Origin: an uncultured Fibrobacterota bacterium
GTDB lineage: Bacteria > Fibrobacterota > OXYB2-FULL-49-7 > JAEUSG01
Assembly: GCA_964590225.1 (NCBI GenBank)
Contig: CAZPWS010000011.1
Coordinates: 4,136-68,135, forward strand
Direction of reading: 5' to 3'
DNA: 64,000 nt
The notes under the pieces are model-generated. The model ran no database searches. It was not told the origin of the DNA and saw only the letters and a program-made list of their open reading frames with translations. Positions within the stretch are counted from its first letter, which is position 1. The number at the start of each line of letters is the position of its first letter. Below, one piece after another: positions 18,806-58,701 of this stretch. Both the position numbers and the translations under genes were made by a program.

Positions 18806-19135
18806 ATGGAAATAACACTATCTACCCATCACGCTTTCAGTGTGGTTGAAGTAAGCGGTCAGATTAACTCTCTTAAGGATTCAATACAACTGAAATCCAT
18901 CATAAATACACTTTTTGATGATGGAAAACGGAATATTGCAATTAAGCTGAAAGATGTTGAGTATGTCGATAGCGCAGCAATAAATGTGCTTATATATGCG
19001 AGAAACATTGCAGACAAACTTAAAGGCGAACTTGTTATTCTCGAACCCAACGAGTACATCCTAAACATGCTCTCAGTTGTTGGAATATCAAAAATTTTCA
19101 CCATTTGCGAGAATTTAGAAACGCTTAAACGGTAA
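18806..19135 (+). CDS. Stand-alone STAS-domain protein (anti-sigma-factor antagonist family)
   Basis: 109 aa. A SpoIIAA-like profile is visible in MEITLSTHHAFSVVEVSGQINSLKDS..., but with no nearby kinase or phosphatase. Confidence 0.7.
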   Translation: MEITLSTHHAFSVVEVSGQINSLKDSIQLKSIINTLFDDGKRNIAIKLKDVEYVDSAAINVLIYARNIADKLKGELVILEPNEYILNMLSVVGISKIFTICENLETLKR

Positions 19136-19193
19136 CACATAAAAGAATCTTAAGGTATAATCGCGTATCTTCCGATAATTTATATATAGTCCT

Positions 19194-22130
19194 ATGAGCG
19201 ATGCCAAAATTAGGCCTCTATTTTTTGTGTTATTCTCCATATGTGGTGTTGTATATGGGCAACTCGATTTATTGTTTAAGAATGGCAGCGATGGAGCTGG
19301 TTCAACCGCCTTTACAACTTTAAATCTTAATGATGGTGCTAGAAATGAAGCACTTGGCGGAAATGCGGGTAGTCTTCTTTATGGCAGTGAGGCAATCTCC
19401 GTAAACGCAGCGATGCTTGCACATACTAACCGAAGCGACCTATCTCTTTCGCATAAAGAGATGCCTATGGGTATGCGCATGGATAAGGTCTCTTTTGTTT
19501 ACCCAACATTTGAATACGGAACCTTTGGCTTCCAATGGAAAAGTTTTCGTTCTGGCTTAATTACGGATGCGCGAAACATAGACGAAGAAGTGGTAGATGT
19601 CTCAACGGGAGACATGAGTCTTGGTGCAGCATATGCGATTGCCTTTATTGACGGAACTCTCTCTGTTGGTGCATTCGGCCAGTTTCTTCAAAGCAATCTC
19701 GCAGATGCAAGCGCAAGGGGATTTTCGTTTGATATTTCAACAAGTGCGCTTATTCTACAGACATTTCGAACAACATTATCACTTCACAACATGGGAGCCG
19801 GAGTATCCTTTGGTAATGTAAAAGAACCGCTTCCGCTTGGAATCTCGACAAATATTGCGTTACCAGTTTTTGAAAACAGGGTGTCAATCACTGCGGGAAT
19901 AAAAAAGAGCGCCGGTAGCGATCTTGAAAGTGGATTTGGGATAGAAACGCACATTCATTCACTGCTGTCCTTACAAATGGGATATGCACATAGAACCGGC
20001 GAAACCGAAAAATCTGAAAAAATTTTTGATGGCCTCCGCTTCGGCACCGGAATAAACATTGGGGATTTCAAAATCAATTATGCATATTCAAAAATCAACG
20101 CTTTTCTTGGCCTAACTCACTCGATTGAAGCGCGCTACAATTTCTCTCCGCTCATACCACCTAATGCGAGCGACTACCTTCGTCGTGCCGAGCGACAATT
20201 CCGCGAGGGCCGGTTTAGTCGCTGTATTTCTTCCGCAGAGCAAGCTCTCCGGCTAAACCCCAATCTATGGCAGGCACACGCGCTTATCGAAGAAGCTCAT
20301 CGACGCCTTAAAGTCAATGAAGGAAGTATATTCGCAGTGTTCTATACCGGCAACACAAATGGTGTGTTTGTTCCAAGTTTAACCAACGGACTTGGCGGAC
20401 TTGCGCGGAGAAGCGCACTATTGAAAATGTTAAGAGATGGCTACCCTTACTCGGTAACTGTAGATGGAGGAAACCTCTGTAAGCAGGATGCTGATTCTGT
20501 TCTCTGGAAAATTGGCTTTGATGTCCTGAAGGAAATGAACTATACAGCAGTATGCGCAGGCTATAACGAAGTAGCGGCTCCAATTACCAAGATACTACCT
20601 TATATCAAGAAAAACGGTACGCCATTTATCTCTTCAACCGGAACCAAAGGAGTTGAAGCATCAACAACAATCGATGCCGGAGGAGGATATAAAATAATCG
20701 TTTCCAGTGCACTTGCAGCCTCGCGAAAAATTGACCCCCTTTTAACTTCATCAAACAGTGGGGCAACAATCAAGCTTTTACTGTTCTCAGGTACAGCTTC
20801 GCAGGCTAAATTAATCGCTCGTTCCAATCCACTAATTGACTTAATTATTTGCAGCAATGACTTAATTCCCACCTATAAAGCTATTCAGGAAGGAAGGACA
20901 ATTATTGTTTCTCCAGGGAAAGATGGCAACTACCTTGGCCAACTATTGCTTCAATGCGATAAGAATAGAAAAATAATTGGGGTTAGCAACAGACTGCATC
21001 CACTTGATGCTTCAACACCGGAGGACGAAAGAATCAAAGCAGCGCTACGGAGCCTTGTAGCTAAAGGTGATATAGCCACAATAAACGACTCCCTATTTAG
21101 ACAGGAAGATACATGGCTGCCATTTATATCAAAATATGACTTTACACTTCAATACAAGCCGAAAACCGTAAAAGATACATCTATAAATGCAGATATGCGC
21201 AGAACAGATACTACTAACCAGATATATCTTGCCTCTGTAAGGACCAATCAAAAAATACGAGTAAGCCATAACCGCCGACATAACAGGCTACCAGAAATAA
21301 ACAGACAAAAGAGCGGAGTCATTTATCTTTCAGACTCAATATCAACTGGATATAACTCAACCGATCTGTTTGTCTATTTTACTCTATACAACATAACAAG
21401 GGCAATAAAAAAAGACGACCCTTTCGCGATCCCCTTAACTGCAAAATGGTCAGCCGAAGGCGACGCAATTTATTTAATCGAAAAAGACAAAACGGGAAAA
21501 AGTGAATTGTTCCTGCAATCTGTGCGTGGAAATGGACGAATTAATATTTCAAGATCACCTGAATCATCCGAGTTTGAGGTGGCGGTTTCGCCAGACGGTA
21601 AAAATATTGCTTTTACTTCCGACCGCGAGGCCGGACAACCCATCTATATTTCAGATCCCTATGGCGAAAAACCCATGAGATTACTCAATAGTCAAGCATA
21701 CTGCGCAAATCCGGAATTTTCGGCATCGGGTAGATATCTATCATTTACCGTTAATGGCAACAGGGCAACTGGAAGCGGAGACCTCTTCCTTTTTGATACA
21801 AAAACAGGTAAGATTGACACTTTAATTGCAGGCCAACCCGTTAGTGAGGCTAAATGGGCAAATGACGAAACCATATTAGCCGTTCAGGGAGAGCTATATA
21901 CTGATATCATTAGAATCAATGTACGCGAAAAAACTTTTCACAGGCACACCGACAGAACACGGAAAGCACCAGTAAAAGAACTAACCCCCCGCCCCTTCAT
22001 GGTTGGCGACACACTTAAGGTCTATTACGAACAGGAAATTGACGGAAAAAATGAAATCTACTGGACTGAATCACCAACAAATCGCCCAATTAAATTTTAC
22101 AATCAATCAGGCGTTGTTCATTTGCGGTAA
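19194..22130 (+). CDS. 978 aa exported multidomain envelope protein: N-terminal outer-membrane beta-barrel-like domain, TPR segment, unknown central domain and C-terminal PD40/TolB-like beta-propeller
   Basis: Signal peptide. The barrel-like region ends in HSIEARYNF. TPR-like EAHRRLK ... AEQALRLNPN. Repeated PD40-type segments (SPDGKNIAFTSDREAGQPIYISD, SASGRYLSFTVNGNR...LFLFDTKTG). Confidence 0.8.
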   Translation: MSDAKIRPLFFVLFSICGVVYGQLDLLFKNGSDGAGSTAFTTLNLNDGARNEALGGNAGSLLYGSEAISVNAAMLAHTNRSDLSLSHKEMPMGMRMDKVSFVYPTFEYGTFGFQWKSFRSGLITDARNIDEEVVDVSTGDMSLGAAYAIAFIDGTLSVGAFGQFLQSNLADASARGFSFDISTSALILQTFRTTLSLHNMGAGVSFGNVKEPLPLGISTNIALPVFENRVSITAGIKKSAGSDLESGFGIETHIHSLLSLQMGYAHRTGETEKSEKIFDGLRFGTGINIGDFKINYAYSKINAFLGLTHSIEARYNFSPLIPPNASDYLRRAERQFREGRFSRCISSAEQALRLNPNLWQAHALIEEAHRRLKVNEGSIFAVFYTGNTNGVFVPSLTNGLGGLARRSALLKMLRDGYPYSVTVDGGNLCKQDADSVLWKIGFDVLKEMNYTAVCAGYNEVAAPITKILPYIKKNGTPFISSTGTKGVEASTTIDAGGGYKIIVSSALAASRKIDPLLTSSNSGATIKLLLFSGTASQAKLIARSNPLIDLIICSNDLIPTYKAIQEGRTIIVSPGKDGNYLGQLLLQCDKNRKIIGVSNRLHPLDASTPEDERIKAALRSLVAKGDIATINDSLFRQEDTWLPFISKYDFTLQYKPKTVKDTSINADMRRTDTTNQIYLASVRTNQKIRVSHNRRHNRLPEINRQKSGVIYLSDSISTGYNSTDLFVYFTLYNITRAIKKDDPFAIPLTAKWSAEGDAIYLIEKDKTGKSELFLQSVRGNGRINISRSPESSEFEVAVSPDGKNIAFTSDREAGQPIYISDPYGEKPMRLLNSQAYCANPEFSASGRYLSFTVNGNRATGSGDLFLFDTKTGKIDTLIAGQPVSEAKWANDETILAVQGELYTDIIRINVREKTFHRHTDRTRKAPVKELTPRPFMVGDTLKVYYEQEIDGKNEIYWTESPTNRPIKFYNQSGVVHLR

Positions 22131-22990
22131 GCCGCTAAGGCCATCTCTTCCGGCATTGGCGCTTCCACAGATATCTTTTTATTTGTAAACGAATCCGTAA
22201 ATTCAATCAGAGCTGAATGAAGCATTATGCGGAAGGCCTGCTTACCGCCATACTCGGTATCGCCAATAATTGCCATGTTTTCGCCGGAAAGGTGGCGTCT
22301 AATTTGATGCATTCGGCCAGTGTAAAGCCTTACTCGAAGAAGTGCGCCCTCACCTCTCCTTTCAATAACTTTCCACGCTGTTTTTGATTCTAAAAATTTA
22401 CCGCTTTTGTCTTCGAGCGGAGTTTCAATAACGCCTGAATCTGCAAAAGGTGCCGTGCCAACAAGCGCAAAATATTCTTTTTTTACTTGCGATAAACGAA
22501 AAAGCTCAGTGGCTTTCCGAAGAGCATCAGCGCTCTTTGCGGCCAAAACTGCTCCCGAAACTCCCTTATCAATTCTGTGCGCCAATGCCGGCTCAAATGT
22601 AAAAGAGTCTGCATTTCTACCTACATGCTGCTTAATTAAATCTATCAGTGTGTCACCATGGTGAAAAGCGCCGGAATGAACAGGAAGGCCTACAGGTTTA
22701 TTAACTACAATAAATCGCTCATCTTCGTAAAGAATCATAGGGGTTAAATCAATTGAAAATTCCTTTACCTGTTCATTTACTGAAACTATACGCCTTAGGG
22801 CAATATCTCTGGCATTAAGCGTATCGCCAATTTCAAGCATCTGTTCTGCTTTACCCCGCTTACCGTTAACTCTTACTTTACCTTTCCGTAAAGACTTATG
22901 AATTAAAGAGAGCGGTGTAGCCTTAAATGCTTTTCGTAAAAAGCGGTCGAGCCTCTGGCCGGCATCATTTTCTGCGATTTTTATTTCCAC
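22118..22990 (-). CDS. RluA-family pseudouridine synthase with S4 domain
   Basis: An S4 RNA-binding N-terminus plus the catalytic motif AHRIDKGVSGAVL (HRLDxxTSG-type). Confidence 0.8.
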   Translation of the reverse strand: MEIKIAENDAGQRLDRFLRKAFKATPLSLIHKSLRKGKVRVNGKRGKAEQMLEIGDTLNARDIALRRIVSVNEQVKEFSIDLTPMILYEDERFIVVNKPVGLPVHSGAFHHGDTLIDLIKQHVGRNADSFTFEPALAHRIDKGVSGAVLAAKSADALRKATELFRLSQVKKEYFALVGTAPFADSGVIETPLEDKSGKFLESKTAWKVIERRGEGALLRVRLYTGRMHQIRRHLSGENMAIIGDTEYGGKQAFRIMLHSALIEFTDSFTNKKISVEAPMPEEMALAAYRK

Positions 22991-28327: not shown

Positions 28328-30283
28328 ATGGCACTATTTAGCACTATGCTGCCAAAGGCAGCCCTTTCCACTCTTGTTGACCGTTTTCCGGATGGCCTGG
28401 CGATTTTTCTGCACGAAAACAATACCCCCATTTATGTTAATGACGCTTTCGCAGCCTTACTATGCCTATCAAAAGAAGCACTTCTAAGCGGCGACGCAAG
28501 GCTCCCCTTTGCAATACCGCAAAATGGAACCCAGCATATCGATTTTAGAAGTCCACTTCGAAGCATAACTCTTGACTGTAAGGTTTTTAACATTAAGCAT
28601 GAAAACTTCAATTTTAGGGCTATCACCATAAGGGATGTTACGGATGTCGTTTACAAGGAAAACATGCTGAAGGAAAAAGAGGAAAGACTCAGACTTGCTT
28701 TTCAGGGTGCACAAAACGGAATATGGGACTGGGACTTACGAACCGGCAAAATGCATTTTTCGCCTGAGTGGAAGATTATGATAGGTTGCGCGGAAAACGA
28801 AGTTTCAGACCATCCGGATGCATGGTTTAAACGAGTTCATGACATGGATATGCCGGTTCTTCAAAATGCCATACAGGAGCATCTCCGCGGTAAAACACAG
28901 CATTTCAAGTGTCAATACAGAATTCTCCACAAAGATTTCTCCTATAAATGGATGCTTTGCAGTGGCGCCGCAATTAACGGACCCGATAACCGACCGGCAC
29001 GGCTTACAGGTGTCCAAGTTGATATTACCTCACAAAAAGAAAATGAAACAAGGCTCAAGGAAGCACTTGATGACTTGCAATTAGCACTCACATCCGAAAG
29101 GCTCCTGCTTCAAGAGCTTGATCGAAAAAACAAGGAATTAACTGAGCTGTCCATTACTGATGGTTTAACTAAACTTTACAATCATAGATTTCTTCAGGAA
29201 AGATTTGATTTTGAATTCGGTAAAGCAAGACGCTATGGTCAGGTACTATCATGCCTTTTAATAGATATTGACCATTTTAAAAACATAAACGATACATACG
29301 GCCACCAGTTCGGCGATTGCGTACTACGAGATTTATCGCGACTACTCAAAGAAAATTCCCGCGAATCGGATATTTGTGGAAGATATGGAGGCGAAGAGTT
29401 TATGGTTGTATCGTCAATATCTATTGACGACGCGCTGAAATTCGCGCAAAAACTTCACGATGCTGTAGCCTCTTACCCATTTTCTGACGGTACAACAACT
29501 ATTAAGGTTACAATAAGTATCGGCGTTACAGATTATAAAAACGATATAAAAACAAAGCAGGAAATGATTGAGCGGGCAGACAACGCTCTTTATCAAGCCA
29601 AGCACGAAGGGCGTAACACCGTGCGACAATGGAAGGAAAGAAATGACAACGACGACAAAACTATGGACCCCGATGCAATAGAAGGTTTGCGTAACAGTTT
29701 TAACAACCTGACTGAAAAAATGCGTACAACCTACATAGAGTCAACAAACGCACTGGTTAATGCCATAGATGCGAAAGATCACTACACCATGGAACACTCG
29801 CAAAATGTCGCCAATTATGCTGTCGCTCTTGCGAAAGAAATTCACTTGCCAGATAAAACTATCGAGACCATAAAGAACGCCGCCCTACTGCATGATGTTG
29901 GTAAAATTGGAATAGCACAGGAAATACTTCTTAAAAACGGACCTCTTACAAAGGAAGAATTTGAAGTAATGAAACGGCATCCTGTAATTGGTGTCAATAT
30001 TCTTAAAGATGTAAAATTCCTTGAGAAGGAGTTGCCAATTATCCTGCACCATCACGAAAGATTTGATGGAAAAGGATATCCACACGGTCTCAAAGCGTAC
30101 GAAATACCTCTGGGGGCAAGAATTCTCGCTGTGGTGGATGCTTACGACGCAATGACTACAGACAGGCCATACCGAAAAGCGTTATCAAATGAAATTGCTA
30201 TTGAGGAGCTTAGGAAAGGGGCTGGCACCCAGTTTTCAGAAGAGCTAATTGATGCTTTCATAAGAATTATCCGAACTTCATAA
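28328..30283 (+). CDS. PAS-GGDEF-HD-GYP composite c-di-GMP turnover protein
   Basis: PAS-like region (WDWDLRTGKMHFSPEWK), intact GGDEF A-site (RYGGEEFMVV), and an HD-GYP domain (HSQNVANYAVALA ... LLHDVGKIG ... HHERFDGKGYP). Confidence 0.85.
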   Translation: MALFSTMLPKAALSTLVDRFPDGLAIFLHENNTPIYVNDAFAALLCLSKEALLSGDARLPFAIPQNGTQHIDFRSPLRSITLDCKVFNIKHENFNFRAITIRDVTDVVYKENMLKEKEERLRLAFQGAQNGIWDWDLRTGKMHFSPEWKIMIGCAENEVSDHPDAWFKRVHDMDMPVLQNAIQEHLRGKTQHFKCQYRILHKDFSYKWMLCSGAAINGPDNRPARLTGVQVDITSQKENETRLKEALDDLQLALTSERLLLQELDRKNKELTELSITDGLTKLYNHRFLQERFDFEFGKARRYGQVLSCLLIDIDHFKNINDTYGHQFGDCVLRDLSRLLKENSRESDICGRYGGEEFMVVSSISIDDALKFAQKLHDAVASYPFSDGTTTIKVTISIGVTDYKNDIKTKQEMIERADNALYQAKHEGRNTVRQWKERNDNDDKTMDPDAIEGLRNSFNNLTEKMRTTYIESTNALVNAIDAKDHYTMEHSQNVANYAVALAKEIHLPDKTIETIKNAALLHDVGKIGIAQEILLKNGPLTKEEFEVMKRHPVIGVNILKDVKFLEKELPIILHHHERFDGKGYPHGLKAYEIPLGARILAVVDAYDAMTTDRPYRKALSNEIAIEELRKGAGTQFSEELIDAFIRIIRTS

Positions 30284-35680: not shown

Positions 35681-38404
35681 ATGCAGCAGTTATTTGCGCT
35701 ACTCTTTTTAATTTTCTCGTCTGTTATTCTCGGCGATAATGTTTCCGACTCTATGCTTTTATCGTACTTTGATGCATCTCTTTTGCCGGTAATGTTTATA
35801 CTTAACGCAATCCTACTGTTTATCGTATCTGCCTTTTTTATGACCTTAATAGATAGAGTTGACCGCGGCTACTTACTAATAGGCGTTCTTGTCAGCCACC
35901 TAATAATACTGTCTGCAGTAAAAGTTGCAATAACATTAAAAATATTCGTAGCCTGTCCATTTTTGTACTCTTATTCCTATTCATCTAAAATGATTTTATT
36001 TATGGTTTTCTGGACAGTTGTCAATGATATTATTGATGCACGGGATGCAAAAAGGCTGTTCCCACGAATAGCAGCAGGTGGCGTACTTGGTGGAATCACA
36101 ATCTCCTTTGTTGCGGCTATATTTGCCCCTAGCCTCGGCGCAGAAGGGCTTATGGTTGTATGGCTTGCAATTGTTAGCGCAGCTATTCCTCTCTCGTTCG
36201 CGATACATAAAAAATTCATGCCACATTTAAAGGCTACACGCGAGCCATCAACATCATCATCTCTTTTTCAAAGGCTAACAGACTTTCGTTTAATCCGCAA
36301 TGACAATCTGCTACGGCATATGGCGATTATCTATTTTCTTACCTTCATTCTCTTATACGCGAACGATTTTATATTTCTTTCAACACTTAAAGAAAATTTT
36401 CTTTCGGCGCGCAATAGCCTAATAGAAGCGATCGATCCATCGCTGATACTTGGCCTATTAAGTGGCGGCGATGCCGATGCACTGATCTTAAAAAAGGCAG
36501 TGCCAACTTTTCTTGGACTTTTTAAAGGAATAGCAAACACACTTACCTTGATAATTCAGTTTACAATAGCAGGTTTTATTCTCCGTAGTCTTGGAACCGT
36601 AAAAGCTATGCTTGTTATGCCAATTTGCCTCTTTTTTATTTATGGTTCAATGGTAGCGGTCAAGTTTCTTAATTTTCCAGATATTGCCCCACTAGGATAT
36701 CCTTTTTTCGGAAATCTTTTATTCACAACTGTACTATTTGGTCTTACCGCGAGAATCGCGCTTTTCGACGCGATTTATTCACCCAATTTCCAAATTTTCT
36801 TTTCTGCACTAAATAAAGACATTAGGGGAAGAGGAAAAATCCTTATCGAAGGCCTTATAAAACCATTCGCCATTCTTGCAGCCGGACTTTTTATACTTAC
36901 ATTTTATGAATCCCACCCTACTGGTTCGCTTATCTCTCTATTTGTTTTTTCGTTTGTACTAATCGTGATATGTCTTTTAATAAAAAAATCATATACAAAG
37001 AGCATTGCGAAATCGCTCGGAGACGGTAGAGAGGAAAGACTTGAAACCCTGCTGCACTCCGACAAAGAGAAAGAAGAAAACGCCATCCCCTTTCTTCAGG
37101 ACTTTATTGAGGACACCGATACAGAAATAGCTGAATTCGCGACTTTCACGCTAGCTTCTTTGAGTGGAGATGAACCCCCAAAGCTTCTATGGGGACGCTT
37201 CTCTCGAGCGAGTGAGTCTGAAAAAATACACTTTCTTCGTGTCATATTACCGCTAAAAGATATGCGATATATACGGCTCTATGAAGCTGGTCTTTTTAGC
37301 ATCTCGGGCGATGTAACGGCAACATCACTTGAGGCTATTATTAAATTAGGAATACCAATAGATACTTCTCGCATATCCAGATTTGTCAACAGTAATCATG
37401 ACGGAGTGAGAGCGGCAGCGGCAGTTGCACTATGGAAGAATGGTTCTGCAAGCGAAAAACAGATGCTGCAAACTGTTTTGCGTGAGGTGCTATTTGCATC
37501 CGATACATCTTATCTTAAATTTGGTATTAGAGCACTTGCAGCCTCCTCTGATTCTTCGCTCTGGCCCTTGCTTGAAATGGGATTAAATAGAGCGCTACTG
37601 CTCGGTACAGACTATACGAGAATAGCAATTGAGGCCGCCTCCTCCATAAACGATATCAGGGCATGTAGGTGGTTAATGACACAAATACCTCTTTTAGAAG
37701 GAACCGTTCTGGATCTTATTGATAAACATCTTTCACTGTATTTGCATGAGTATCCTGAACTTGTTGAAGAGGCTTTTAATAGTCCATGCGCGGTTCTGCG
37801 AATACATACCGTCAAGGCCCTTGTCAACAGGAGTAAAGACAATGACGAAGCAATTACAACTCTACTTGAGGATCTGCTTGAAACTGAAGTACAACTTATG
37901 TTTCGCTATGCGTCGTACACATCCATACTGCTGCCAGAAAGCGATGGTGAAAAACTTTTATCTGATGCTGTTAACGAGCGAAAAATATCCACCAACTTAT
38001 CGCACTTTCTAATGATATGCGCGGCACTCTATCCAAATTCGGGACTAAAAGCTGCGGCGAATAGAATTAAAAGCATAAATAAACATGTAAGAGCCTCAGC
38101 CCTTGAGCTGCTTGATAATACAACATCAATCCGTCCTGTTAAGCTTTTTCTAAAGCTTATCGACAAACCGGACCATTCGTGGATACGAGATACGCTTCGC
38201 AAGGAGTGGCGAGAGGAAACGCCAACGCGCCTTTCCGTTATCAAAACATTATCTGAAGAGTCTGATGCATGGATACGAATGCTCGCTATTTACGCTGCAT
38301 TGGAACACGACAGAGCTTTTGGAAACACAGAATTTCTCGATGCAATTGACCTAAACAGGGTAAGCGCTCTTGCACTTATGGCGGAGGTAATTGAAGATGG
38401 CTGA
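35681..38404 (+). CDS. TLC/NTT-like (ATP/ADP-translocase family) polytopic membrane domain fused to a ~450 aa cytoplasmic HEAT-repeat array
   Basis: The N-terminal ~440 aa has 10-12 predicted TM helices. WTVVNDIIDARDAKRLFPRIAAGGVLGGI parallels the TLC signature WQFANQIT..AEAKRFY..FG.LANL. The C-terminus carries repeated HEAT/PBS-lyase-like helices (VRAAAAVALWK..., LRIHTVKALVN..., VRASALELLDN..., IRMLAIYAALE...). Confidence 0.65.
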   Translation: MQQLFALLFLIFSSVILGDNVSDSMLLSYFDASLLPVMFILNAILLFIVSAFFMTLIDRVDRGYLLIGVLVSHLIILSAVKVAITLKIFVACPFLYSYSYSSKMILFMVFWTVVNDIIDARDAKRLFPRIAAGGVLGGITISFVAAIFAPSLGAEGLMVVWLAIVSAAIPLSFAIHKKFMPHLKATREPSTSSSLFQRLTDFRLIRNDNLLRHMAIIYFLTFILLYANDFIFLSTLKENFLSARNSLIEAIDPSLILGLLSGGDADALILKKAVPTFLGLFKGIANTLTLIIQFTIAGFILRSLGTVKAMLVMPICLFFIYGSMVAVKFLNFPDIAPLGYPFFGNLLFTTVLFGLTARIALFDAIYSPNFQIFFSALNKDIRGRGKILIEGLIKPFAILAAGLFILTFYESHPTGSLISLFVFSFVLIVICLLIKKSYTKSIAKSLGDGREERLETLLHSDKEKEENAIPFLQDFIEDTDTEIAEFATFTLASLSGDEPPKLLWGRFSRASESEKIHFLRVILPLKDMRYIRLYEAGLFSISGDVTATSLEAIIKLGIPIDTSRISRFVNSNHDGVRAAAAVALWKNGSASEKQMLQTVLREVLFASDTSYLKFGIRALAASSDSSLWPLLEMGLNRALLLGTDYTRIAIEAASSINDIRACRWLMTQIPLLEGTVLDLIDKHLSLYLHEYPELVEEAFNSPCAVLRIHTVKALVNRSKDNDEAITTLLEDLLETEVQLMFRYASYTSILLPESDGEKLLSDAVNERKISTNLSHFLMICAALYPNSGLKAAANRIKSINKHVRASALELLDNTTSIRPVKLFLKLIDKPDHSWIRDTLRKEWREETPTRLSVIKTLSEESDAWIRMLAIYAALEHDRAFGNTEFLDAIDLNRVSALALMAEVIEDG

Positions 38405-38861
38405 TCAAAAGATGGATGCCTTGCGGTTTCTTGAAAATGTAATTTTCCTGCGAAAACATACGCTTTTTTCCGGCTTACAAACTGGAGAACTGAGAGCCCT
38501 TGCCCTCATTGCAAAAGAAATACCCTTGATAAGTGGTGAATACGCAGTAAGAGAAGGAGATGCCGGAGATTCTTTTTTTATTGTTAAGTCCGGTACTCTT
38601 CTTGTTGTTAAGGATGAGGGAAAAATTACTCTAGCCCGCATCGAGCAAGGGGGCTGTTTTGGAGAAATGGCATTATTTGAAGATGGCACACTTCGTTCAG
38701 CAGATGTCAGGGCAGATGGGCCAAGCATACTTCTTTCCTTTCAACGGGAAGACTTTTTTGATGTGCTAAGCCGACAACCGAGAATTGCAATTGAGTTGCT
38801 TGTACTGTTCAGTCGCCGTATCAGAGAACTCAACGAAAAGCTATCTGCGGAGAAATTATAA
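38391..38861 (+). CDS. Stand-alone cyclic-nucleotide-binding (cNMP/CAP-effector) domain protein, 156 aa
   Basis: Canonical cNMP cassette FGEMALFEDGTLRSADVRA. It overlaps the upstream gene by 14 nt and the downstream gene by 1 nt. Confidence 0.7.
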   Translation: MKMADQKMDALRFLENVIFLRKHTLFSGLQTGELRALALIAKEIPLISGEYAVREGDAGDSFFIVKSGTLLVVKDEGKITLARIEQGGCFGEMALFEDGTLRSADVRADGPSILLSFQREDFFDVLSRQPRIAIELLVLFSRRIRELNEKLSAEKL

Positions 38862-40291
38862 TGGGTAAAACTGGATTTGCTACTCTATTTATAGTAGCTA
38901 CAATGTTGCTTAACTGTGTAGCAACGCGACAGGTTTCGATAACGGTTCGAATGATGCCAGAACAGGAAAAATATTTTAAAGAGAACATTCTTTCTCCTTT
39001 CGAAAAGAAGCATAAATGCCGTATTACGGTTAATTCCTACGATCACCCAGCATCATTAGATACAATGCTTATGGATGGTGCAAAAAATACTATTCTTGTT
39101 AAAGTTCCCTTTGAAGCCACCAGGCATGTCGCCGAAACCAAGCTATTAAAACCTATCGACTCTATAGTTAATACTAAGGAATTTACAGAAATTAAAAACC
39201 GTTATTTTCTGATGCAACTCGCGGCTTTTGATGGCCAAACATATTACTTTCCGAGAAAATTTGAAACAAGAATAGTTGTAGCATTAAAAAGTAAAATAAA
39301 CGAAGCTATTAGGATGTGGGGCGGACATCGAGAAGCAATTGATTCGGTACTTAAGACATACAACGGATACGGTCTTCCGAGCGGATATACTTTGGAAGCT
39401 AATCCCGATGAATGGGACTATTTCGATGTATTTGTCGCTGGCTGGTACTGGGCAAGATCTGACTCAACAAAGTTTATGCCACGAATTGCGCATCGAAGCA
39501 AAAGATACTCAGGCACATGCCAAAGACTTGTTGATAGGATTATATCGCTTGGAGGGAACAGTAGCTCAATAATGAAAATGGAAGGACCAGAAACCGATGG
39601 CTCCTTTATATGGGAAGCGCTCTATGCACGAGAAAAAATTTATCATCCATCAATGATCAAAGATGGATGGTCGGGAGTGGACATATGGAATGGTTTTAAA
39701 AAAGGCGAAGTATATCTTGCTTTCATGACACAACTTGATGCCTTTTTTATACACGGCGATGACGCAGGAAAACAGGCTGGTTATATTGCGAATCCTGACG
39801 ATCTTACTTTTGCTGTTATGCCTAAAGGTGTCTCGCTTGAATTATCATCGGAAGGAAAGCCCCTGTTTGTTGGAACAAACTCCGTATCAACTGGTGGGTG
39901 GTGGTGGGGTATCCCTGTAAATTCCCCCGACTATAAACTCTCTTTACTCCTTGCAGAGTGGATACTCGCTTCTGCCAATCAAACAACCGAAGCAAGCAAT
40001 TTTGGAATGATACCAGTGCGAAAAGATATCTTGAGTGACATCGGGTTGCTGTTTGGAAGAACATGGATTGCTGATATCTATAACACTTCACTCAAACAAC
40101 TCGTTTATAACCGTTATAATACAGTTCCTGTTCATGATAAATATGCTGAGGTAGAATCAATTTATCTTGACGCTTTCGACGACATAGTAATAAAGGGAAA
40201 CAACGGTCCAACAAACAGTGGCATGATTTCATACATTGGGAAAATATTGGAACCTTACCGATCTAAGGCATATATCATTTCAAACAAGTAA
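38861..40291 (+). CDS. Periplasmic solute-binding protein (SBP_bac_1-like) lipoprotein, with no adjacent ABC permease or ATPase
   Basis: Signal peptide with LLNC lipobox-like Cys. 476 aa. Aromatic blocks WDYFDVFVAGWYWA and GGWWWGIP are typical of family-1 sugar-binding proteins. Confidence 0.55.
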   Translation: MGKTGFATLFIVATMLLNCVATRQVSITVRMMPEQEKYFKENILSPFEKKHKCRITVNSYDHPASLDTMLMDGAKNTILVKVPFEATRHVAETKLLKPIDSIVNTKEFTEIKNRYFLMQLAAFDGQTYYFPRKFETRIVVALKSKINEAIRMWGGHREAIDSVLKTYNGYGLPSGYTLEANPDEWDYFDVFVAGWYWARSDSTKFMPRIAHRSKRYSGTCQRLVDRIISLGGNSSSIMKMEGPETDGSFIWEALYAREKIYHPSMIKDGWSGVDIWNGFKKGEVYLAFMTQLDAFFIHGDDAGKQAGYIANPDDLTFAVMPKGVSLELSSEGKPLFVGTNSVSTGGWWWGIPVNSPDYKLSLLLAEWILASANQTTEASNFGMIPVRKDILSDIGLLFGRTWIADIYNTSLKQLVYNRYNTVPVHDKYAEVESIYLDAFDDIVIKGNNGPTNSGMISYIGKILEPYRSKAYIISNK

Positions 40292-57747: not shown

Positions 57748-58701
57748 CTAATCCTCCACAGATATATCATTGAGCCTAAACATTGAGGCAGCAAGAATGG
57801 CTGCCACTTTTTTTGCATTTACAGATATCTTTGCGGTCTCTTTAGTTTTGCCCTCAAGCAAAGTTTTTTCATCAAAATTCACCACTTCCATCTGAGCAAG
57901 TTCTGTCATGAAATCACCATTAGAAAACAGCTTATCAGCACCTTCACCAAGCTTTGTAAGCGATAATTCACACATGCCATCTTTCTCACCCTTGGCGACC
58001 TTCACTGCATCGTAAAGAACCCGCAGTACGGTGATTGCCTCAACAGACAATGGCTGACTGGCTTCTATAGAAGAATCCGCAATTTCTCCCCGCTTATAAC
58101 TGGCAAATAGCTCGATGGCCGATTTATCCGGAACCTGAATACGGTTATTACCGATAGCTATTAGTTTATGTCTTTCAATCTCCTTTAAAGCGGCAAGAAC
58201 ACGGTCGTGCGGTAGGCTCATTATTTCCATTATTTCGTTTTTTGCAAATTTTAGATCAAGTTCATCGTGGCCTGATAACGAATCTTCCTTTTTCCTGTTT
58301 ATCATAAGAGTCAACATAGTGGCAATGTTTGCCACAGTGTCCGAATCGAGGGAGGCTCGCACCTTTCTATCGGTATCCCTAAGGCGAGTGCATAATATCC
58401 TAATGATTGCCAAAAACCACTCGGGCATCTGGTGTGATCGCTTCTCAAACTCCTCAACAGAGATAACCGAAGCCTCAACCTCATCAATTGCTTCTACCGT
58501 TGCAGAACGGGAGCGGCCATCAAGCATGGACATTTCACCAACTATGCCACCCTTGCCAATTTCACACAAGTCAATTCGTTGTCCCTTTTCCGTCCTGTAA
58601 ACTTTCACCTTACCGCGGTGTAATAAATACATCTCACGACTTCTATCATTTTCTCTGAAAAGAACTGAACCGCTTACAAAAATTTTATTTACAGGTGCCA
58701 T
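57748..58701 (-). CDS. cNMP-binding domain protein (317 aa) with an uncharacterised C-terminal helical domain
   Basis: N-terminal cNMP cassette (LCEIGKGGIVGEMSMLDGRSRSATVEA). Its stop abuts the start of the downstream beta-helix gene (57747/57748). Confidence 0.7.
   Translation of the reverse strand: MAPVNKIFVSGSVLFRENDRSREMYLLHRGKVKVYRTEKGQRIDLCEIGKGGIVGEMSMLDGRSRSATVEAIDEVEASVISVEEFEKRSHQMPEWFLAIIRILCTRLRDTDRKVRASLDSDTVANIATMLTLMINRKKEDSLSGHDELDLKFAKNEIMEIMSLPHDRVLAALKEIERHKLIAIGNNRIQVPDKSAIELFASYKRGEIADSSIEASQPLSVEAITVLRVLYDAVKVAKGEKDGMCELSLTKLGEGADKLFSNGDFMTELAQMEVVNFDEKTLLEGKTKETAKISVNAKKVAAILAASMFRLNDISVED

Follow-up and report, generated by a model that had tools for sequence, protein, structure and literature searches.

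Several described systems come close to the protein analyzed here. Within the system for type IX secretion (T9SS), the outer-membrane-associated periplasmic lipoprotein PorE (PG1058), which combines TPR with a TolB-like propeller, has been proposed to act as a scaffold (PMC5053529). In Treponema pallidum, the FadL-type barrels of TP0548, TP0859 and TP0865 are followed by a C-terminal three-helix TPR domain which is presumptively periplasmic; these spirochaete proteins are examples of FadL/PorV-type barrels that serve outside T9SS (PMC8407342), as is BamG (PMC12611786). We examined a stretch of 64,000 nucleotides (hereafter the window) from a contig of an uncultured Fibrobacterota bacterium, which encodes a 978-aa protein joining, in this order, a barrel of the PorV/FadL type, a three-helix TPR-like module, a degenerate 5'-nucleotidase-type domain and a TolB-like PD40 propeller. 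PorV/FadL-type barrels usually stand alone, whereas this one appears to anchor a large non-catalytic periplasmic arm. Our analysis suggests that the protein is probably an outer-membrane-anchored, non-catalytic periplasmic scaffold of Fibrobacterota. The individual folds are already known, and relatives have already been labelled 'PorV/PorQ family protein' by the NCBI pipeline; what is added is a new variant of architecture within the PorV/FadL family. No description of either the four-module architecture or the conserved pseudo-5'-nucleotidase turned up in the literature searched.

The open reading frame (ORF) runs from ATG to stop through 978 codons and fills its interval exactly (Table 1), and the GC content around it (~0.41-0.43) is unremarkable, with no compositional anomaly. 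Nine contigs that stem from several sequencing runs and were assembled independently encode an identical 978-aa protein, next to the genes that flank it in the window. Six database relatives (974-1042 aa) with 24-52% identity to it can be aligned over the full length, giving a collinear alignment of seven proteins, and the same six full-length relatives were returned by each of three indexed protein searches, even when the search was seeded with 58 sequences. An exhaustive profile search covering 1.84 billion cluster representatives (50% identity level), of which the best 150 matches were examined, returned at least 57 full-length representatives (930-1045 aa) with the four modules complete and in unchanged order, together with many evident fragments. 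The collinear homologues in these at least 57 clusters are 20-52% identical. The preliminary description, made from the DNA letters and their ORFs, had read a single polypeptide that joins an outer membrane barrel to periplasmic-type modules, and had named a frameshift fusing two genes, or an N-terminus without a closed barrel, as findings that would overturn this. The recurrence of the identical protein on nine contigs and of the fused architecture in at least 57 clusters excludes a fusion by sequencing or assembly frameshift; a chance ORF is excluded on the same grounds and on its normal composition. We found no point in support of an artefact of either kind and regard it as practically impossible. 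The ORF and its conserved fusion are thus directly established.

Pairwise identity across the family is 25-34% in every module, with a variable linker. All named sources of homologues are metagenome-assembled genomes (MAGs) of Fibrobacterota (labelled Fibrobacteres, Fibrobacterota, Fibrobacteria or Chitinivibrionales). A single-protein scan of species-representative genomes found no homologue, an alignment-based genome scan gave five loci, resting on one usable peptide pattern, and a metagenome scan with the seven-sequence alignment also gave five loci; the 58-sequence alignment contained no stretch conserved enough to drive such a metagenome scan. Relatives were compared for separate coding of barrel and arm, as had been proposed at the outset. 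Judging from their sequences, the fused form is the rule, although genes for the periplasmic part without a barrel do occur occasionally: P0089 and P0095 (~660 aa) begin with a signal-peptide-like N-terminus and continue directly with the pseudo-phosphatase and the propeller. Another variant, P0078 (730 aa), has the barrel, the TPR module and the propeller without the pseudo-phosphatase.

The modules were delimited on an AlphaFold2 (AF2) model built from the 58-sequence alignment (mean pLDDT 88.6, pTM 0.60), which supersedes a first, moderate model from seven sequences (pLDDT 70.7). It consists of the signal peptide, short helices (residues 41-77), 14 long beta-strands (80-319), three helices (325-376), an alpha/beta domain (379-622), a low-confidence linker (624-670) and an all-beta propeller (676-959). 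The predicted signal peptide, already recognized in the preliminary description, has a positive N-region, a hydrophobic core and a small-x-small site with no canonical lipobox (all read by eye), and relatives show equivalent cleavage sites ending in SAQ. Behind it lies a plug or hatch segment marked by the family motif AG.T..FL.LP..A..LG and by (N/F)-P-A, the latter reading N71-A-A in the window protein; across 58 members the Asn is found in 24, the Pro in 38 and the Ala in 47. In alignments, this segment pairs with the beginning of the PorV_fam profile and with PorV from residue 30 on.

Both the AF2 model and structural comparison show that the N-terminal part is indeed the closed outer membrane barrel that had been suspected. 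It has 14 strands and carries the N-terminal segment in its lumen, as is characteristic of the PorV/PorQ and FadL superfamily. Residues 37-317 cover the full NCBIfam NF033709 profile (PorV/PorQ family; positions 1-326 of 326) at 83.7 bits against a cut-off of 90, all of the 49 scanned relatives match this profile (best E 1.5e-40), and two of them, P0001 and P0002, bear the NCBI family name. Both equivalog scores lie far under their cut-offs: the PorQ model NF033711 scores 66.9 bits against a cut-off of 220 and the PorV model NF033710 23.4 bits against 250, and they are matched by 45 and 27 of the 49 members, respectively. A PDB search with the single barrel sequence returned no match, and the family profile was needed to reach PorV (E 7.7e-17). 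The alignment of the 402-residue PorV chain with this profile stops a few residues short of the PorV C-terminus, with no arm seen, in contrast to the 660-aa arm here, and ~80 PorV residues are without a counterpart. In the AF2 model, long inter-strand connections (of 18, 15 and 12 aa) are confined to L2, L4 and L6, while the alternate turns are all at most 5 aa; the surface loops are therefore predicted to be short, and PorV has longer ones. No match to Pfam Toluene_X (PF03349), the FadL family in the strict sense, was obtained at E up to 1.

Conservation across the family peaks in the helical module (C344, A351, P356, W359, A361 and L364). TPR domains typically contain at least three repeats. 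The TPR assignment of the preliminary description holds in so far as three TPR-like helices are present, but these amount to only ~1.5 repeats, and Pfam TPR_2 scores 16.2 bits, under its cut-off of 27. Likened by description only, the T. pallidum FadL-like outer membrane proteins share the 14-strand barrel, a hatch with NPA or NAA, a short linker and a three-helix TPR; they belong to another phylum and end after the helical bundle, whereas the family here continues with the dead 5'-nucleotidase and the propeller.

The central region had been left unassigned in the preliminary description. Profile and fold evidence now identify residues ~378-622 as a degenerate domain of the 5'-nucleotidase/UshA type. 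A Pfam search on this domain alone gave nothing meaningful and its single-sequence matches to UshA-like and SoxB models are weak, but at the profile level it matches CD73 (E 1e-15, profile positions 23-266), YfkN (1e-10), SoxB (3e-7) and UshA (1e-6), and genuine enzymes with PF00149 and PF02872 turn up in the family profile search. The calcineurin-like fold of the 5'-nucleotidase N-terminal domain is present. What is missing are the dimetal ligands and the catalytic His (D-x-H, G-D, G-N-H-E, H and G-H-x-H), as seen in an alignment with real enzymes, and the statement that this region has no metallophosphatase His/Asp motifs was accordingly correct. The enzyme motif T-x-D-x-H has become T-G-N387-x-x in the family, D-x-G-D has become D-x-G-N427, and G-N-H-E has become G456-x-x-E459; the His of motif IV, missing from the window protein, survives only in P0004-6, and G-G-H-x-H (motif V) contains no His in the family. 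Counted over ~80 family sequences, position 387 is Asn in 68 of 74 members and position 427 is Asn in 57 of 77 (Asp in 7), and the residues common at the GNHE positions do not include His. PF02872, the C-terminal nucleotide-binding domain of metallophosphatases of the 5'-nucleotidase, UshA, CD73 and SoxB kind, found no match in the window protein or its relatives, which have the linker and propeller in its place. Since the metal-ligand and catalytic residues are replaced and PF02872 is missing, the domain reads as a pseudo-enzyme rather than a nucleotidase, and an active phosphatase was rejected on the replaced motifs. With a pairwise identity of 28% it is conserved as well as the other modules; the pseudo-enzyme has thus been maintained, presumably for binding or as a structural element.

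For most members, the linker that follows measures 28-39 aa, against 54 for the window protein and 93-96 for its closest relatives, a variation that suggests lineage-specific tuning of the arm's reach.

The C-terminal PD40/TolB-like propeller named in the preliminary description was recovered in several ways: a Pfam PD40 match, a match to the TolB model TIGR02800 in all 49 members, and TolB both as the best PDB sequence match and as the top Foldseek match (E 4.8e-13). A TolB proper would reach 343 bits in TIGR02800 and possess an N-terminal TolA-binding domain and a tol-pal operon. With a score of 48.8, a match limited to the propeller part (profile positions 239-369 of 418) and no tol-pal genes nearby, the protein is not a TolB orthologue. 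TolB is moreover soluble in the periplasm, whereas here a propeller of the same type is covalently tied to an outer membrane barrel. Family C-termini end in WLE or HLR, with no T9SS C-terminal domain.

PorE is the closest functional analogue: there, too, a TPR module precedes a PD40 propeller of the TolB type, and the protein sits at the outer membrane's inner face. Yet PorE is lipid-anchored and not barrel-anchored, it alone has the CRD and the peptidoglycan-binding OmpA_C domain, and it has no pseudo-phosphatase. The window protein shows no lipobox and no OmpA_C or CRD match, and the PorE model NF052230 matches only one of the 49 members (1.8e-4).

In outer membrane proteins, long loops usually lie outside and short turns inside. 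As the number of strands is even and the long loops are all on one face of the modelled barrel, strand 14 would end in the periplasm; we infer that both barrel termini face the periplasm and that the C-terminal arm is periplasmic. The signal-peptide-like N-terminus of the barrel-less variants fits this and supports the arm being a Sec-exported periplasmic unit. In the mechanism that we propose, the protein would be exported by Sec, and its 14-strand barrel would then insert into the outer membrane, plugged by its own N-terminal segment, and serve as the covalent membrane anchor of an arm of ~660 residues. Along this arm, the three-helix TPR-like module would be followed by the dead 5'-nucleotidase-type domain, the flexible linker and the propeller. 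None of these would be enzymatic here; instead, they would present three protein- or ligand-binding surfaces on a flexible arm. Such a scaffold or tether would hold one or more partners, periplasmic or in the outer membrane, at the inner face of this membrane, a role that would resemble those of PorE and, elsewhere, of the TolB-Pal pair.

Several points weigh against the scaffold proposal. Gene context was scanned for all window ORFs of at least 150 aa and for 13 related loci, and neither T9SS nor Tol-Pal genes were found there, nor any conserved operon partner across the 13 loci. The predicted location of the arm rests on loop lengths and general rules for outer membrane proteins. The partly conserved (N/F)-P-A motif of the hatch leaves room for a working FadL-type channel, and the Asp kept at the motif-II position in seven members would permit a residual phosphate- or metal-binding role of the central domain. 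The preliminary description had gone further and suggested an envelope-spanning scaffold of the T9SS/Tol type. In its favour, the nearest relatives are PorV for the barrel and TolB for the propeller; however, the PorV, PorQ, TolB and PorE models all score below their equivalog cut-offs, the T9SS context that it had proposed to look for did not appear in our scan, and of the envelope-spanning arrangement only the outer membrane anchoring and a probable periplasmic arm are retained.

A T9SS role is nevertheless a plausible special case of the scaffold proposal. In its strict form, the protein would be a dedicated T9SS component of Fibrobacterota, with a PorV/PorQ-type barrel and a PorE-like scaffold linking the outer membrane translocon or attachment complex to periplasmic T9SS parts. 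The breadth of PorQ- and PorV-model matches in the family and the likeness to PorE speak for this, the system has been reported as possibly present in Fibrobacterota (PMC11285876), and a protein ~7 kb from one homologue (locus L004) has a weak Por_Secre_tail match. Against it stand the low PorQ and PorV scores, the single PorE-model match and the lack of OmpA_C. PorV binds its cargo by loops, and those of the window protein are far shorter. None of the core T9SS genes (gldK/L/M/N, sprA/sov, porU and porV) occurs among the scanned window ORFs or the conserved neighbours at the 13 loci, and the 'PorV/PorQ family' label is also found in spirochaetes, outside the superphylum credited with T9SS. 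On balance we hold a dedicated T9SS component to be possible but doubtful. A working FadL-type channel for hydrophobic molecules, with an arm that receives or passes on cargo or regulates the hatch, would account for the conserved part of the hatch motif, whose NAA variant in the window protein recurs in TP0859 and TP0865; the T. pallidum candidates for FadL-like transport also carry C-terminal TPR helices (PMC8407342), and the homologue of locus L014 adjoins LolCDE/MacB-type permeases and a LolA-like TP_0789 gene. We consider such a channel unlikely, as no Toluene_X match was obtained, the sequence is nearer to PorV, which is not a small-molecule transporter, the Asn of the motif is found in fewer than half of the members, and the arm contains no lipid-binding-like fold.

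BamG, a subunit of the machinery for beta-barrel assembly (BAM) in Bacteroidota and the broader Fibrobacterota-Chlorobiota-Bacteroidota (FCB) group, is likewise a FadL-family 14-strand barrel, and the window protein could be an accessory subunit of an FCB-type BAM complex whose arm docks on the POTRA domains of BamA or on BamD. But BamG ranks structurally under PorV, FadL and TodX, its sequence does not match the barrel profile at E up to 1, the available part of its description mentions no periplasmic arm (PMC12611786), and no bamA/bamD neighbourhood exists in the window or the 13 loci, which makes a BamG-like role very unlikely. Last, the C-terminal modules might be displayed on the cell surface. 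Autotransporters of type Ve have an N-terminal barrel and then a large C-terminal part, the same domain order as here, and a second precedent would be the PorZ propeller anchored by PorQ, which belongs to a cell-surface attachment complex with PorU, PorZ and PorV (PMC11205867). The barrel of the window protein is, however, a plugged one of 14 strands and FadL type, not the 12-strand barrel of type Ve; its loop-length pattern puts the end of strand 14 at the periplasmic face; there is no T9SS C-terminal domain; TPR, UshA-type and TolB-type modules are typical periplasmic folds; and the barrel-less variants carry plain signal peptides. Inverse-autotransporter-like or PorZ-like display is in our view highly improbable.

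The genes around the 978-aa ORF are mostly of the housekeeping kind (SppA, a GltX/GlnS pair, LarA-like, STAS, RluA, AroD, MetW/MetX, PNPase, IF-2, NusA, TruB and TopA). At the 13 loci, only lineage synteny is seen: RluA is convergent in the window's branch, the other branch has Smr and TGT, and a radical-SAM gene and AroD are found close by. The RluA, AroD and MetW/MetX synteny of the window is common to the homologue-bearing Fibrobacterota MAGs. The 3' end of the ORF overlaps that of the convergent gene of an RluA-type pseudouridine synthase by 13 bp, and the convergent order is kept in the relatives L007 and L008. Upstream, 58 bp separate the ORF from the gene of a single-domain STAS protein of the anti-sigma-antagonist type, which was considered as a partner and rejected, being confined to the window's own lineage; a second STAS-containing protein is encoded ~10 kb off. 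A promoter-like site in the 58-bp gap hints that the 978-aa gene may have its own promoter, with such sites no more frequent in this region than in shuffled sequence. In four distant-branch loci, a small lipoprotein with the lipobox ...AGC|SNDN and a Ser/Thr-rich tail is encoded downstream of the homologue on the same strand, a gene order that recalls tolB-pal; this lipoprotein belongs to no Pfam family and has no counterpart in the window. The homologue of L014 is preceded by genes for two permeases of the MacB/FtsX type, a TP_0789-like (LolA-like) protein and a 424-aa protein of no assigned family; this neighbourhood of possible lipoprotein or envelope transport is not conserved elsewhere.

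Farther away in the window, a 952-aa protein has a weak GH94 match only, a 907-aa protein has HEAT repeats only, and two proteins of 340 and 157 aa have no family matches. Second-messenger signalling genes are notably dense, with two cyclic-nucleotide-binding-domain proteins and one PAS-GGDEF-HD(-GYP) protein; one of the former overlaps the end of the HEAT-repeat gene and is followed by the gene of a solute-binding protein. There is a back-to-back pair of class-I Glx-type aminoacyl-tRNA synthetase genes, the second with GlnRS-type C-terminal domains, and two NosD/right-handed beta-helix proteins are set in housekeeping surroundings, the first of them following a DUF6263-like ORF.

Table 1. Features of the 978-aa protein and of neighbouring genes; positions refer to the window unless a locus is named.
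Feature	Residues	Position	Strand	Basis or remark
Complete ORF, four-module outer membrane protein	978 aa + stop	19194..22130	+	ORF list, identical copies, collinear homologues
Sec signal peptide, predicted cleavage after VYG	1-22	19194..19259	+	Read by eye from sequence
N-terminal plug/hatch segment	30-78	19281..19427	+	AF2 helices 41-77, column conservation, profile alignment
14-strand FadL/PorV-type transmembrane beta-barrel	79-319	19428..20150	+	
Three-helix TPR-like module	322-376	20157..20321	+	AF2 helices 325-337, 341-354, 359-376
Pseudo-enzyme domain (N-terminal metallophosphatase domain, 5'-nucleotidase/UshA/CD73 superfamily, metal ligands replaced)	378-622	20325..21059	+	
Variable low-confidence linker	623-672	21060..21209	+	pLDDT <50 at 624-633 and 654-670
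TolB-like PD40 beta-propeller, roughly six blades	673-978	21210..22127	+	Blade number by strand count, AF2
Tentative promoter-like site GTAACA-18-TATAAT in upstream gap		19132..19161	+	Consensus scan
STAS protein	109 aa	18806-19135	+	
RluA-type pseudouridine synthase		22118-22990	-	Overlap with ORF 22118-22130
Small lipoprotein at four loci	129-143 aa	L010:12894-13325, L012:13048-13446, L014:8561-8953, L016:9124-9513	+	29-221 bp downstream of homologue
Permeases, TP_0789-like and 424-aa proteins		L014:182-5235		
Second STAS-containing protein	372 aa	8766-9884	-	
Weak GH94 match	952 aa	5088-7946	-	
HEAT repeats	907 aa	35681-38404	+	
No family match	340 aa	42627-43649	-	
No family match	157 aa	1652-2125	-	
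Cyclic-nucleotide-binding domain		38391-38861	+	
Cyclic-nucleotide-binding domain		57748-58701	-	
PAS-GGDEF-HD(-GYP)		28328-30283	+	
Solute-binding protein		38861-40291		
Glx-type aminoacyl-tRNA synthetase	491 aa	14113-15588	+	
Glx-type aminoacyl-tRNA synthetase	553 aa	15592-17253	+	
NosD/right-handed beta-helix		31140-31865	+	
NosD/right-handed beta-helix		56653-57747	-	

The family is a further clear example of a 5'-nucleotidase fold that has become a pseudo-enzyme, with the two metal-binding Asp residues changed to Asn in most members. Its automated name, 'PorV/PorQ family protein', is no proof of a T9SS function. Among nameable lineages it is seen in Fibrobacterota, which are major cellulose degraders with poorly understood envelope and secretion machinery, and it offers a testable candidate for contacts between the outer membrane and the periplasm in this phylum, possibly for T9SS. 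More speculatively, one polypeptide in Fibrobacterota may replace what are separate parts in other Gram-negative bacteria, with an outer membrane barrel hard-wired to a TolB/PorE-like arm and a 'fossil' 5'-nucleotidase re-purposed for binding or sensing, e.g., of a phosphorylated envelope ligand or of a partner lipoprotein such as the small downstream one of the distant branch. If true, this tentative idea would mean a hitherto undescribed, lineage-specific device for envelope tethering or secretion coupling.

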